Below are positions 14,775-50,053 of a stretch of 57,255 nt of DNA, in pieces. Numbering within the stretch: the stretch's first letter is position 1; each line of letters starts with the position of its first letter. The notes under the pieces are model-generated. The model was not told the origin of the DNA and ran no database searches. It worked only from the letters and a program-made list of their open reading frames with translations. A program made the translations under genes and the position numbers. The stretch comes from Eledone cirrhosa (Eukaryota), in NCBI GenBank assembly GCA_964016885.1, contig CAXHJY010000116.1:1-57255 (forward strand), read 5' to 3'.

Positions 14775-15011
14775 TAGGAAAATGTATGACCCCGACAGCA
14801 GAGCTCAAGTCGTTTCGACGGCTATTTCTGGACTAAATTAGAATTTTTATCCAGGCTAAAAATTCTAATTTAGTCCAGAAATAGCCGTCGAAACGACTTG
14901 AGCTCTGCCGTCGGGGTCATACATTTTCCTATTACCCACTCTATTACCCTAAGTTTTTAAGTACTCTGGCGCGTTATGGTCCATCTGGTTCCTTACCACA
15001 CCTCCTTCGTT
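14775..15011 (+). mobile_element. Fold-back element family A (hammerhead 3' half) in (TA)n
   Basis: Short arm taggaaaatgtatgacccc..., turn near 14852, long arm ...tagccgtc-GAAA-cgact..gccg-TC-ggggtc plus an ~80-nt tail ending ccttcgtta. Confidence 0.8.
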
Positions 15012-15376
15012 ATATATATGTATAATTGGTGTTGGATGCTTAAAGCGTCCGTATGCGGTAGGCCGTTTGAGCACTCGATGGTCTCATAGAGTAGAGTATG
15101 ATATCATATATATATAAATATTATATATATATATAAAAATGAGGTAAATATCTCACTGAGTACTAAGTACCCATAGAGATATATAGTGTGTCTATAATAT
15201 AATCTTTTGTAAATGGAAACCGCCGGTAATAGCATTATGAACAGGTAGATATTTAAATCATTTTTTAATTTATTTAAAGGATTGTTTAATGTTTGTTTGT
15301 TCTGCTCATCAATTTATATATATATATATATATATATATATATATATATATATATATATATATATATATATATATA

Positions 15377-15600
15377 TGCAAAAGTTCTATTTAAATTGTT
15401 GGGATACAACAAGCAAATATTTTTATAACTGATATAAAGCACTCGACAAGTATTTGGAGTAAATATACGATATTAACAAATGGAAACTATATTTGTAAAA
15501 CCATATCCATTTTATTATACATATTTCATGGTATCTTTGAAATATGTATAATAAAATAGATATGGTTTTATAAATATAGTTTCCATTTGTTAATATCGAA
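15377..15600 (-). mobile_element. Fold-back element family C, turning inside hammerhead stem II
   Basis: Inverted arms around 15530 with GAAA-tatgta-TA-ataaaata. Homologous to 35889-36180 and 56216-56652. Confidence 0.75.
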
Positions 15601-15754
15601 TATATATATATATATATATATATATAATGTAGGAGGTGAGTTTTATTGTAGTATAATAAAGCAATGCAGATATCGGATAAGAAGCACTCTACAGTTTGTA
15701 GGACTGGAGTATACATAATATATAAGATCAAAAGATGGTTAAAAGAGTTCCATG

Positions 15755-15825
15755 TATTTTATTATGCGCATTTCAAAAACAAATATCATCATGCAATAAC
15801 ATTTGTGTTTTCATCAGATAAAATA
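15755..15825 (-). ncRNA. Type I hammerhead ribozyme (minimal stem III)
   Basis: Exact reverse complement of 15940-16010. Confidence 0.8.
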
Positions 15826-15939
15826 GGAAGACATGATATGAAGGTTAAAAACACTTGTGGATATCTTAAATTATTTTTCATATGTTGATTTAAAACTGCA
15901 CTATCCACAAGTGTTTTTAACCTTCATATCATGTCTTCC

Positions 15940-16010
15940 TATTTTATCTGATGAAAACACAAATGTTATTGCATGATGATATTTGTTTTTGAAATGCGCA
16001 TAATAAAATA
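15940..16010 (+). ncRNA. Type I hammerhead ribozyme (minimal stem III)
   Basis: tattttat-CTGATGA-aaacacaaatgttattgcatgatgatatttgttttt-GAAA-tgcgca-TA-ataaaata: 8-bp stem I, long stem II, palindromic TGCGCA stem III. Confidence 0.82.
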
Positions 16011-16068
16011 CATGGAACTCTTTTAACCATCTTTTGATCTTATATATTATATATATATATATATATAT

Positions 16069-16300
16069 AGTGAAATAGTCTTTTTAGACTATATAGTGCA
16101 TTTGCAGATTTCTCCAAATTGACGGTTAAGTATTTCTTCTTGATTTTATTTTGAGTTAAGATTGTATTGGTTTTTTTTCTCAACTTACACAAAGTCTGAG
16201 GATTAAATTTGTCTTCTTGACTTTTATTTAATTAAGATTGTATTACTTATCCCATATCTTACGTTAAAAATGTTCATCTTGATGTAAATTATGTCAGAAT
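16069..16300 (+). mobile_element. Family D fragment starting at the hammerhead 3' half
   Basis: After (TA)n: GAAA-tagtc-ttttta-gacta-TA. Downstream sequence resembles the reverse complement of 21890-22065 (ccaaattga.gg.taag ... cttacgttaa). Confidence 0.6.
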
Positions 16301-16340
16301 TATTGTCGGCTTTTTGCTTACATTAATTTCTCTATTTTCA

Positions 16341-45813: not shown

Positions 45814-45975
45814 CAATGTCGGATTTACTATTATCCTTAGGTGTTCTTGCGCAGAAGGTCGCATTGGCCTGGAAGAGGCCCATTTTCCTACCAAACAATT
45901 TTTTAACCCCCTGCAGGGCCCAAGTAAGTGGCCTCATAACTAGTACAGAGCTCATTTGTGCTAAATCCGGCATTG
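45814..45975. mobile_element. hAT-type MITE with 14-bp TIR and 8-bp TSD TGTATATG
   Basis: caatgtcggattta / taaatccggcattg. TSD at 45806-45813 and 45976-45983. An older relative lies at 46339-46570. Confidence 0.8.
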
Positions 45976-46101
45976 TGTATATGTATATGTTTCACAGACA
46001 CACACTCATGTATGCGATGGATTCTTACTTATTCCTTTTTGTGTGGTCAAAACTTAAGACGTTTGCTCCATATATATATAGAGAGAGATAGAAAGATATA
46101 T

Positions 46102-46328
46102 TTAACACTTTAGCAATTACATTACTCTCTATATAGATTGTATATTTGTGGTAAAGGCTTTATTTCACATAATATCTCACATAATATCGAATCTATGAGA
46201 TTTTGATGTTATTTATTTTGAGAACAATACCTTAAGGACAGTAAGAGCGGCCAGTTATGGCCCGTTTGAACAGAAAGAGGTGAGATAATTCTGCCCGAAT
46301 ATGGCCGGTTTAAATGCTAAAGGATTAA
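46102..46328. mobile_element. Possible piggyBac-like MITE
   Basis: TTAA-cactttagca ... tgctaaagga-TTAA. Confidence 0.4.
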
Positions 46329-48154
46329 CCCTTTTGACCAGATCCGGATTTACAATTGTACTTAGGTATGCTTAAGCACGGGCCCCTGTTGGCAAAGGAA
46401 GGGGCATATTCCTGCAAAAGAAATATTTTACGATGGATTGCTTCTGACAGGACCCGCTGTAAGGAATGTTTGAGTACTCTGCCCCCACGACCTTCTCAGG
46501 AATAACTGCAAATCTAAGGGGTCTCATAACTTAACTAGCACAGGGCCTGGTTTGTCTTAAATCCGGCACAGCTTCTGACAGCAAACTGGCTGAAACTACC
46601 CCTGGATCTATGATACAAAATCTATGAAAACAACAATTTATACACTGGGGTCGATTTAATCGATTTCTCTTCCCACCAAAATTACGTGCCTTGTTCCAGA
46701 ATGAGACATTACTATTGATATAAGCTATCATGTGACATTTTGTGGGGGGGGGGGGGGGGGAGGGGGGGGGGGGGGGGGCAGAAAACAAACCGAACCAACT
46801 TTGTCTTTTGTTAAAAAAAAAATAACAAAAGCGATAAGTCCTTTTTCTGAAAAGAGACTATAATAGACACGGCGCTGTTATTTTCACTGAAACAATGCGA
46901 TCAATCTGTCCCCACTCCACCATCGTCTGCTATTGTGTACTGTCGTCTGCTTCTCTTGAAACTCGAAAAATTCAATTGTTTTTTTTTTGTTATTATTTTT
47001 TCTGCTGCCTTTTTTTTTCTTCATTTCTTTTTTTACTTGTTCCTCGACATTCATTCGCAACAGTGGCAAATTTTCCATTGGGAATGATATATATATGTAT
47101 ATATATATATATATATATATATATATGTGTGTGTGTGTGTGTATATATGTGTATACATGTATATATATATATATTTTAATGTGTGTATTGTGTTTGTATA
47201 TATGTGTGTATATATATATATGAATATGAATATATATATATATATATATATATAATATATATGTATGTATATATATATAATAAATATATATATATATATA
47301 TATATAATACATATATATATATATAATACATATATATATATATATATATTATATATATATATATATATATATATATATATATATATATATGCAAAGATTA
47401 ATATTCATTAATAGTTTGTTTTTTCCTTTCGCTTCTTTTATTTTTTTCTCCTCTTATGTATGTATATATATATATATATATATATATATATATATATATA
47501 TATATATACGTATATATATACATAAACATATATATATACATATATTTATACATATAATATATATATATATACATATTATATATATATATATATATATATA
47601 TATATATATATATATATATATATATATATATATAATATACACACATATATATATATATACACATATACATGTATATATATATATATATATATATATATAT
47701 ATATATATATATGAACAACATTCCTCAATACCTCACACACACTTCTATATATACTATCATATGCTTGAGCACACAAGCGCGTGGCCACACAGCCACACAG
47801 GCATTTTACGTACGGTGCAATTCCTCTCTCTCGAATAGGACGCCATCTTGACGATGTAAGGGAAGAAGGAAAAGCGTTAGTTAGATGGTGATGGTGATGG
47901 TGATGGTGATGGTGATGGTGATGGTGATGGTGATGGAGGTGGTGATGGTGATAATAATAATAATAATAACAATAATGCTCGCCCTTCTCTATAAGGAATC
48001 TCAGGTTTCAGTTGGAAACACATATGGTTATTGTTTATATTCTTCAGTGATGTATATATATATATGTATATATGTATGTATATATATATATATATATATA
48101 TATATATATATATATATATATATATATATATATATATGTATATATATATATATA

Positions 48155-48835
48155 TAAAATGAAAAGTATAGAAATTATTATGAGCAAGAAGCACACAGTA
48201 TTTCATATATATATATATACATATATATATATACATATATATATATATATATGTATACATATATATATGTATATATATACATGTATGTATATATATATAT
48301 ATATATATATATATATATATATATATATATATATGTATATATATATATATATATATATATATGTATATATATATATATATATATATATATATATATATGT
48401 ATGTATATATATATATATATATATATATATATATGTATATGTATATATATATATATATATATATATATATATGTATATATATATATATATATATATATAT
48501 ATGTATATGTATATATATATATATGTATATATATCTATATACATATATATATATATGTATATATGTATATATATATATATGTATATATATCTATATACAT
48601 ATATATATATATGTATATATGTATATATATATATATATATATATATATATATATATATACATACATGTATATATATATATATATATATATATATACATAT
48701 ACATATATAATATACATATACATATATATATATATATATATATGTATATATATATATATATATATATGTATATATATATATGAAATACTGTGTGTTTCTT
48801 GCTCATAATTTCTATACTTTTCATTTATTTATATA
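48155..48835. mobile_element. Inverted ~50-bp arms enclosing ~570 bp of TA/TG microsatellite
   Basis: aaatgaaaagtatagaaattattatgagcaagaagcacacagtatttca / tgaaatactgtgtgtttcttgctcataatttctatacttttcattt. Confidence 0.75.
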
Positions 48836-49153
48836 TATATATATATATATATGCATATGTATATATATATATATATATATATATATATATATATATATAT
48901 ATATATATATATATATATATATATATATATGCATATGTATATATATATATATATATATATATATATATATGCATATGTATATATATATATATATGCATAT
49001 GTATATATATATATATATATATATATATATATATATATATATGCATATGTATATATATATATATATATATATAATGTGTGTGTGTGTGTGTGTGTAATTA
49101 TGTATGTATGTATATATATATATATATATATATATATGTGTGTGTGTGTGTGT

Positions 49154-49380
49154 ATAACGAAGGAGTTGTGGTAAGGAACCAGGTGGACTATAACGCACCA
49201 AAGTACTCAATACTTAGGGTAGTAGAGTGGGTAATAGAAAACAAGTATGACTCCGACAGCAGAGCTCAAGCCGTTTCGATGGCTATTTCTGGGGTCATAC
49301 ATTTTCCTATTACCCACTCTACTGCCCTAAGTATTGAGTACTTTGGTGCTTTAAGGTCCATCTGGTTCCTTACCACGTTA
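49154..49380. mobile_element. Fold-back family A with two long arms
   Basis: The left arm is the reverse complement of the family tail. The right arm starts at ggggtc (49291). Confidence 0.82.
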
Positions 49381-49858
49381 TATATATATATATATATATA
49401 TATATATATATATATATATGCACATAAGGGATATGTATGTATATACACATATACATGATATATCTCTCTCCATATATACATAGATATATATAATATATAT
49501 ATTTATATATGTATATATGTGTACTATATATATATATATATATATATATATATATATATATATATATATATATTTATAATATATTATGTATATATATATA
49601 TATATATATATAAATATGAGAAGAATTGAGTGCTACGTGGATGCACATGAGTTAAATATGAATAAAATTAGTCCTTCATCACTGATTTTCCAACCTTCAT
49701 TGGTATTATATATATATATATATATATATATATATATATATATTTGTTTTGCGAGGTTTTTGATATGAAATCGTGTGTCGAAACAAATATTGTTATACTT
49801 GGGGAGGGTCATATTGCTGTAATAATATTGCCAGAATTATATATATATATATATATAT

Positions 49859-50053
49859 AGGAACCAGTAAGACCCCGACAGCTGAGCTCAAGCCGTTTCG
49901 ACGGCTAATTCTGAGTCCAGAATTAGCCGTCGAAACGGCTTGAGCTCAGCTGTCGGGGTCTTACTGGTTCCTATTACCCACTCTACTACCTCAAGTATTG
50001 AGTACTTTGGTGCGTTATGGTCCACCTGGTTCCTTACCACATTTCCTTCGTTA
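49859..50053 (+). mobile_element. Fold-back element family A
   Basis: aggaaccagtaagaccccgacagctgagctcaag / cttgagctcagctgtcggggtcttactggttcct plus tail. Confidence 0.88.

Follow-up and report, generated by a model that had tools for sequence, protein, structure and literature searches.

The window analyzed here is a 57,255-nt stretch of Eledone cirrhosa DNA (contig CAXHJY010000116.1, positions 1 to 57,255), a repeat-rich, animal-type sequence in which runs of (TA)4 or more make up 11% of the length. It contains nine loci of a very small insert, family A, with a total length of only 165–240 nt, in which a long direct arm is usually preceded by a shorter inverted copy of itself. Our results support the view that this palindrome has been rebuilt repeatedly and was not inherited from one ancestor. 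We consider it probable that both strands of the target prime reverse transcription, each at one of two fixed internal sites of the RNA, and that the two cDNAs are joined head to head, so that the palindrome is remade at each insertion. The family A inserts are likely fragments of the pseudo-long terminal repeat (pLTR) of a Penelope-like element (PLE), and not autonomous PLEs proper. Such inserts are dense here: within 57 kb there are nine copies of family A, along with 8 hairpin inserts from six other families.

Family A was delimited by BLAST searches with two of its copies as queries. Four clean copies, at 14775–15012, 18271–18436, 45219–45418 and 49858–50053, are flanked on both sides by (TA)n. 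In each of them the short arm ends 19 nt past a GTC triplet, the long arm ends 99–100 nt past it, leaving a one-sided tail of 80–81 nt, and a variable segment is complementary between the arms (4 of 4). An initial annotation of the same DNA had reported short arms ending about 19 nt past GTC at a TA, long arms running about 80 nt further and complementarity of the variable segment within each copy, all of which holds for the four copies it named. In the first copy, the short inverted arm (14775–14849, minus strand) ends in (TA)n, and the long direct arm (14850–15012, plus strand) carries the 3′ half of a hammerhead. This arm comprises loop II and the 3′ strand of stem II, GAAAC (14890–14894), helix III with a palindromic loop, GTC (14910–14912), the 3′ strand of stem I, the variable segment (14919–14927) and the inner end site at 14931, followed by the tail (14932–15012). 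The other three clean copies are on the plus strand, with short and long arms at 18271–18302 and 18303–18436, at 45219–45278 and 45279–45418 (tail stem from 45345), and at 49858–49913 and 49914–50053. The short arm of the 18271 copy omits 23 nt between two 7-nt direct repeats.

The remaining five copies are less regular. The copy at 30141–30311 (plus strand) had been called similar to the clean ones, which is true of its normal long end; its short end, however, is aberrant, and at the other end the short arm extends 26 nt beyond the long one in the 5′ direction. The variable segment does not pair between the arms, because 5 of the last 10 nt of the short arm are mismatched to its own long arm. 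Four more copies were added to those described initially. At 49155–49380 (minus strand) there are two long arms of different templates, which differ at 8 positions plus 2 gaps over 100 columns, and one of which starts 0–2 nt from the predicted ribozyme cut. The copy at 20950–21090 (minus strand) is a long arm only, with its 5′ end at a recurrent 5′ site joined straight to (TA)n; 35325–35396 (plus strand) is a subfamily copy with only a short arm, ending 22 nt past GTC in (TA)n; and about 17385–17590 (plus strand) lies an old, diverged copy, whose inverted arm is decayed and whose direct arm begins at the recurrent 5′ site. An inverted, 5′-truncated copy thus adjoins the 5′ end in seven of the nine, and all nine are bordered by a TA run on at least one side, with a short TA followed by (CA)n on one side of the copy at 49155.

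The two ends are discrete across the family and not only in the window, as the initial annotation had expected, because reads and contigs show sharp steps into (TA)n. The direct arm (14846–15024) served as the reference for reads and contigs of four samples at a likeness of 80, and 19 of 22 runs contained the stretch or part of it. Two samples, X20 and X21, are raw restriction-site-associated DNA (RAD) reads with the same species label as the contigs of X1, which possibly come from the window's own sample and hence are not independent; the contigs of X6 are from another organism. Among 24 of 484 rows of loose ends, those running into (TA)n at 14932 number 3211 of 19636 reads in X20 and 3051 of 20272 in X21, together with 247 of 15918 contigs in X1 and 1 of 39 in X6. 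In X20 and X21, 1837 and 1902 reads have a loose end at 15019, which lies in the TA run beyond the long end. Depth drops by 26% and 24% across 14932, and the tail has no other comparable step, save a dip at private variants of the reference. These are counts of reads and not of loci, from biased RAD sampling.

The same head-to-head arrangement of a short and a long arm is found in six other families of the window (B to G), with tails of about 75–100 nt where both ends are defined. These families came from a palindrome scan, which was not exhaustive and missed three family A copies, plus follow-up, and B, C, D, E and G were also compared with the whole window by BLAST. Family B has copies at 15626–16048, with intact type I hammerheads head to head and a short arm that extends beyond the long one by at least 22 nt on the 5′ side, and at 21126–21558, where the junction of the short and the long arm is a self-complementary hexamer and no loop separates them. 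Its arms show 0 mismatches in 149 at one locus and 1 mismatch plus 1 gap in 178 at the other, compared with 11–14 mismatches between loci, and both arms carry complete type I hammerheads that are predicted to fold. Long and short arms set in (TA)n, with tails of about 88, 75 and 100 nt, are seen at 15377–15600 (family G), 36307–36497 (family C) and 38172–38358 (family F). In families D (36520–36690) and E (35690–35848) the short arm ends in (TA)n and the outer end of the longer arm is undefined, and a relative of family G at 56190–56679 has two equal arms with 1 mismatch in 225. When 17 hairpin inserts were classified, 10 were firmly of the short-plus-long type, 2 were symmetric (49155–49380 and 56190–56679), 2 more (D and E) were short-plus-long with an undefined outer end, and those at 17400, 22962 and 28911 remained unclassed. 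Compared with independent choice of the two sites at the most favorable frequency of 0.5, this is an excess of mixed pairs (10 of 12, P=0.019; 12 of 14, P=0.0065), on a count that is small and was compared post hoc.

In addition, the tails share a small stem. It starts 2–12 nt 3′ of the short end in all seven families and reads ACTC..GAGT in A, B, C, F and G and GCTC..GAGC in D and E, so that its outer pair covaries; it is present in both arms of the family G relative at 56190–56679. The stem arose in 0.1–1.6% of 2000 shuffles of each tail, and its pattern has 19 matches in the window against a mean of 4.6 and a maximum of 9 in 100 block shuffles. Every one of the 19 falls within these inserts, a solitary piece of family G near 35971, or a tail-only piece at 15020–15105 (minus strand), which sits between two TA runs with the stem 8–13 nt from its 5′ end. 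These shuffle rates flatter the stem, because the pattern was chosen after the tails had been seen, and distant kinship of the seven families may account for its sharing. Covariation was judged by inspection, as automatic alignment placed the 3′ half well and the 5′ half not in all rows, and the 3′ half is mutated in the 14775 copy. An insert of about 80 nt between TA runs at 38070–38150 has a looser form of the stem and is possibly another tail-only piece.

If each palindrome is made during its own insertion, the two arms of a locus should resemble each other more than they resemble the arms of other loci, and this expectation of the initial annotation was borne out. Over a shared block of 26 nt, pairing each of the four clean short arms with the long arm of its own locus costs 1 mismatch in total (4 × 26 nt), which ranks first among the 120 ways of matching them to five long arms (mean 14.4). 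This comparison excluded the inverted arms of 30141, 49155 and 17400. Short arms differ from one another by 2–6 in the block and are no closer to one another than to the long arms of other loci. Although no more than 3 of every 100 X20 reads carry it, the 14896 allele of the 14775 copy is present in both of its arms. Together with the differing junctions described below, this supports the earlier suggestion that the palindrome is rebuilt and not inherited. The variable segment is less telling, and marks subfamilies, because its alleles are common in reads (A>C and A>T at 14919 each occur in about 30 in 100 X20 reads). The discordant arms of 49155–49380, one of which has a different allele than its partner, require two templates, so the single RNA per insertion that the initial annotation proposed would not hold for every copy.

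Long perfect hairpins invite arm-to-arm conversion or hairpin-templated repair, and arms could have been made alike after insertion in this way, in which case their concordance would say nothing about how they arose. For example, both arms of 49858–50053 share a CpG-type change. Mismatches persist, however, between the arms of 14775, 45219, 30141 and the family G copy at 15377 (3 in 66), as do the 8 differences and 2 gaps of 49155–49380, and the alleles shared between arms are mostly common subfamily alleles. Since later conversion would also leave the fixed ends and the asymmetry of the arms unexplained, we consider it very improbable as the source of the concordance, and we continue with arms copied alike at insertion.

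The junctions between the arms point in the same direction. All seven two-armed family A junctions differ, as had been predicted for turn points; what was not predicted is that the 5′ ends cluster: in five of the nine copies an arm begins at the counterpart of base 14872, directly after a T. The turns at 21381/21382 and 45279 have loops of zero and one base. In the samples, 15 of 31 joints were considered, and 13 of these link opposite strands; 10 of the 13 start at 14872–14876, and all 13 share only 0–2 letters. Ten of the 13 join 14851–14884 to 14960–14977, that is, they connect non-overlapping pieces, and four of these ten lie at 14963–14977, away from the private variants of the window. 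Most turn points are hidden from the reads, because many RAD molecules end at AATT sites inside the arm. The recurrent joint positions 14872 and 14960 both begin with AGT, in or beside small hairpins.

A palindrome could also arise by fold-back, if a cDNA begun at the outer site (or an antisense template) primed itself near its end and the second arm were then terminated at +19, either by an endonuclease cut at ATT or TAT or by a jump onto the target. Self-priming is a published reading of the inverted copy in PLEs (PMC3846280), and resolution of the tail by the endonuclease (EN) has been proposed (PMC8557442). This route would explain arm identity without strand displacement, as well as the presence of one short and one long arm per insert. 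The inner end has ATT in 7 of 7 families, which matches the preferred cut of the Poseidon element PAc of Anolis, as described in vitro (PMC11167929), but in families as AT-rich as these ATT should often occur by chance. In PAc itself, the tail ends are start sites of reverse transcription (PMC11167929). The short arms of 30141 (26 nt) and of family B at 15626 (at least 22 nt) hold sequence that is absent from the long arm, and because they reach further 5′, simple fold-back of a long cDNA is insufficient without later deletion. Neither loops of 0–1 nt, nor non-overlapping inverted joints with 0 shared letters, nor the discordant arms of 49155–49380 are expected from a cDNA copying itself. Given this, we regard fold-back as rather unlikely, though a serious rival; loops of 0–1 base and 0–2 shared letters fit the joining of two ends better than self-priming. 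A variant in which fold-back takes place on the natural stem II was discarded for the copies in the window, because what follows in their inverted arms is loop II in reverse complement and not the natural 5′ strand.

Alternatively, the palindrome might move as a unit, with many palindromic sources being transcribed, the reverse transcriptase (RT) crossing both arms into the upstream (TA)n and then jumping to the target, and the differences between junctions reflecting erosion of a shared center. The frequent alleles of the variable segment mark subfamilies, so each copy in the window could have its own palindromic source; the 5′ ends do cluster at one base; and intact sources are rare, with only about 2 in 100 of the summed X1 depth reaching 14852–14857. 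On the other hand, all seven junctions differ, the two arms of the 14775 copy share the rare 14896 allele, short arms resemble one another no more than they resemble the long arms of other loci, and each of seven families would need its own palindrome. In X1, moreover, the 8 inverted joints have a depth of 10–40 in 1–2 contigs each, against a summed depth of more than 3 million, although this is weak evidence because the contigs break at shared branches. Movement as a unit therefore appears improbable, and we return to priming from both target strands.

As to what selects the two ends, the initial annotation had invoked microhomology between TA in the target and in the RNA, and this is not supported. 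The direct arm of 45219 contains 12 TA and 3 TAT sites, but use is confined to the inner site and the outer end, and a single step in depth is seen; pairing may help but cannot select when the element offers so many sites. The element itself is identical to the target over 2–5 nt at the inner end, with TAT in six of seven families and ATT in all seven. The terminal TA of the outer end may be target DNA, because no row listed gave the element's own continuation. For PAc, priming is reported to need no homology, and its endonuclease prefers to cut at ATT (PMC11167929).

We propose the following sequence of events. A PLE reverse transcriptase-endonuclease supplied in trans would cut (TA)n on both strands, and the stem lying 2–12 nt 3′ of the inner site would help to position the enzyme such that the inner site serves as the start for one strand and the outer site for the other. 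Both cDNAs would run toward the 5′ end of the RNA, usually halting near one site in loop II, and their 3′ ends would be joined with 0–6 nt of microhomology or small deletions. In part this parallels the published in vitro work on PAc, which cuts and extends both target strands, uses two internal RNA starts that bound the tail, and is predicted to form a dimer (PMC11167929). Since the arms overlap, either the outer cDNA displaces the inner one on the same RNA, or two RNA copies of one source are used, perhaps paired through palindromic loop 3. Displacement seems about twice as likely, because inserts are mostly one short and one long arm, although 49155–49380 shows that two templates are used as well. 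Strand displacement is plausible for an enzyme without RNase H. Failed displacement would yield non-overlapping joints and the tail-only piece at 15020–15105. The twin priming suggested initially is upheld in its geometry, as the 3′ ends of both segments face the target, but not in its plain L1-type form, given that the arms overlap on the RNA. Going further, PLEs might integrate in general by an obligate two-site twin priming, with one ribonucleoprotein and a single RNA, starts about 75–100 nt apart placed by the stem, and the outer cDNA displacing the inner, which would give the inverted pLTR and the tail in one step; we offer this only tentatively, as a possibility about which we remain doubtful.

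Several points weigh against two-site priming from both strands. The short end could be a DNA cut and not a priming site, because ATT at the inner end in all seven families is the cut motif preferred by PAc, and the strands of PAc showed no difference in start site in the experiments described in PMC11167929. One RNA cannot template overlapping arms twice without strand displacement. Among the ten non-overlapping joints, six, at 14960, border on private variants of the reference and could reflect breaks in the alignment, and the joint tables do not give the class, short or long, of the partner arm. The 14775 junction, a 4-nt stem with a 7-nt loop, can fold and fits fold-back equally well, and some junctions could descend from a shared center by small deletions, because the 5′ ends cluster. 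Symmetric palindromes may also be lost faster than others, which would inflate the small excess of short-plus-long inserts. Lastly, the enzyme acting on family A is presumed to come from a PLE, since no autonomous carrier of the repeat was found in the window.

The identity of family A rests mainly on its hammerhead. From GAAAC through a short helix III, whose loop is palindromic, to GTC and a G-run, the direct arm matches the 3′ half of a type I hammerhead, whereas the 5′ half with its core was found in none of the family A copies in the window, which as they stand would presumably be unable to self-cleave. The missing half appears as the loose-end consensus before 14851 in 58 X1 contigs (agreement 0.76) and in 2 X6 contigs. 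Here a C-run pairs with the G-run to give stem I (about 5 bp), and beside a core of seven bases there are nine that can pair with 14879–14887 in stem II. The core is of the U3-A8 form in X1 and has C3 with A8, a mismatch, in X6. This assignment was judged by eye across related contigs. From how little of the X1 depth reaches beyond it, loop II is where the majority of copies end. A long natural stem I spanning the variable segment was rejected, as related contigs pair only about 5 bases. The U3-A8 core has been described for PLE hammerheads, and Cervera and de la Pena noted a short helix I and a palindromic loop as traits of hammerheads in PLE pLTRs, as well as opposite-strand hammerhead pairs 100–700 bp apart in Schistosoma (PMC4209133). 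Elsewhere in the window, hammerhead cores lie in head-to-head pairs at 15626–16048, 21126–21558, 36307–36497, 56190–56679 and 28911–28999. A single intact type I hammerhead (core at 25824) lies in a 250-nt insert between TA runs (25650–25900, minus strand) that has no inverted arm and whose far end resembles 49789–49817, and a 63-bp AT-rich hairpin at 22962–23109 has arm ends that are not anchored in TA runs. With Rfam, no matches were obtained over the window at gathering scores, and an E-value scan of 14700–26000 gave only sub-threshold hairpin matches, with no hammerhead among the 150 of 177 matches listed.

Family A shares with PLEs the type I hammerhead in a repeat, the inverted 5′-truncated copy, the one-sided tail and the AT-rich or (TA)n target, and lacks the RT and GIY-YIG open reading frame (ORF) between pLTRs and the partial direct tandem. 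No ORF is present in any copy, no direct tandem of the kind that forms a pLTR was seen among the nine, and no autonomous element carrying the repeat was found within the window. Direct tandem repeats with complete type I hammerheads, as in retrozymes, are likewise not seen in family A. PLEs do occur in this genome, because the window contains GIY-YIG endonuclease frames: when the 148 longest of 234 complex frames were compared with Pfam, one GIY-YIG domain (12354–12923, E=1.9e-6) and one zf-RVT domain scored above the cut-offs. The GIY-YIG pieces at 12354–13718 were considered as the partner of family A and rejected, as they have no DNA similarity with it, and a weak search for homologs of 13260–13718 among longer proteins found none. 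Terminal inverted repeat (TIR) DNA transposons have inverted repeats at both termini; the termini of a family A insert, at +19 and +99 from GTC, are different sequences and not inverted repeats of each other, which sets the inserts apart from such elements and their miniature derivatives (MITEs). Exact family A patterns had no matches in contigs of metagenomes or of viral and prokaryote genomes.

With its inverted 5′-truncated copy, a tail on one side and TA targets, family A has the signature layout published for PLEs. EN-bearing PLEs (PMC3846280, PMC8557442) likewise have a head-to-head inverted copy, a palindrome at the junction, an extension at one end, a hammerhead in the repeat and (TA)n or AT-rich targets, whereas family A copies have no ORF, no direct tandem and an insert of only miniature size. 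Their tails (80–81 nt, and 75–100 nt in the neighboring families) exceed the 30–40 nt given for PLEs, and their truncation is focused at one site inside the ribozyme, unlike that of PLEs in the published descriptions we drew on. For PAc in vitro (PMC11167929), the likeness lies in two fixed internal starts 3′ of the hammerhead that bound the tail, an AT-rich target, and cutting and extension of both strands. The outer end is also at a similar distance past the ribozyme cut, about 99 nt in family A and 85–92 nt in PAc (computed from +26 and +111–118, PMC11167929). In contrast to PAc, family A mostly combines one inner with one outer start, its sites are 80 nt apart, and a covarying stem lies beside the inner site; the main text on PAc does not link the two starts to an inverted copy in one event (PMC11167929). 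In L1 twin priming (Ostertag and Kazazian 2001, via PMC9148063 and PMC2246262), both ends of the break prime and an inverted segment lies head to head, as would be the case in family A if its priming is as we propose. However, family A has no poly(A), its inner site is fixed and not opportunistic, and its arms in the window usually cover the same RNA stretch, whereas the L1 segments are two regions of one RNA; ten of the 13 opposite-strand joints in the samples, six of them doubtful, would nevertheless fit two separate regions. The ribozyme resembles the minimal hammerheads of PLEs and of metazoan non-LTR retrozymes in being type I, with a short helix I, a long helix II, a palindromic loop 3 and a U3-A8 core (PMC4209133, PMC7229834, 10.64898/2026.07.22.740005). 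Retrozymes are direct tandem repeats with a complete type I hammerhead (10.64898/2026.07.22.740005), while family A is not tandem and lacks the 5′ core.

Other elements accompany these inserts in the window. A PLE-type 3′ end consists of a GIY-YIG frame in 12351–12850 (minus strand) followed by about 540 nt (11810–12350) with a hammerhead-like remnant, ending in a TA run. A second PLE-type piece (12845–14484), with what we take to be a Neptune-like cysteine motif, is inserted at the 5′ side of the first and contains an endonuclease-like frame (13260–13718, minus strand), for which there is an Atlas lead, with GIY-YIG in 11% of the members of one cluster. This frame is flanked by inverted repeats of about 500 nt (12845–13338 and 13935–14484), in which matching stops at the same site, and 175 nt more lie between the right repeat and a TA run. 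The zf-RVT domain belongs to a fragment of a long interspersed element (LINE) at 36898–37461 (plus strand). Two LINE 3′ ends, at 11424–11804 (minus strand) and about 25300–25600, are presumably copies of one RTE-like 3′ end and also terminate in (TA)n. Dispersed copies of what we assume to be a tRNA-type short interspersed element, resembling those of cephalopods, lie at about 16350, 29160, 35560 and 37710 and at 3300–3900. Low-complexity and minisatellite arrays (3800–11200, 32100–33200 and 41600–44100), including one with an 89-nt unit, create long spurious open frames.

The origin of the inverted repeats and one-sided tail of PLEs is called open in passages of PMC8557442, PMC3846280 and PMC11167929, and we found neither a twin-priming model for PLEs nor a shared tail stem in the literature searched, although subscription papers and supplements may hold one. 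What is new here is the set of miniature and very abundant products, tails of two to three times the published length, the bias toward one inner and one outer start, the covarying stem in seven families and the focused 5′ boundary. Because this genome has so many tiny, allele-marked products, twin priming, fold-back with cutting, and movement as a unit can be compared by counts within a single assembly. These products also scatter long perfect hairpins through the genome. The shared tail stem offers a mutable target for the existing in vitro system of PAc. Obligate two-site twin priming, if true, would provide a general mechanism for the PLE signature, together with a cis-acting RNA element not described before.

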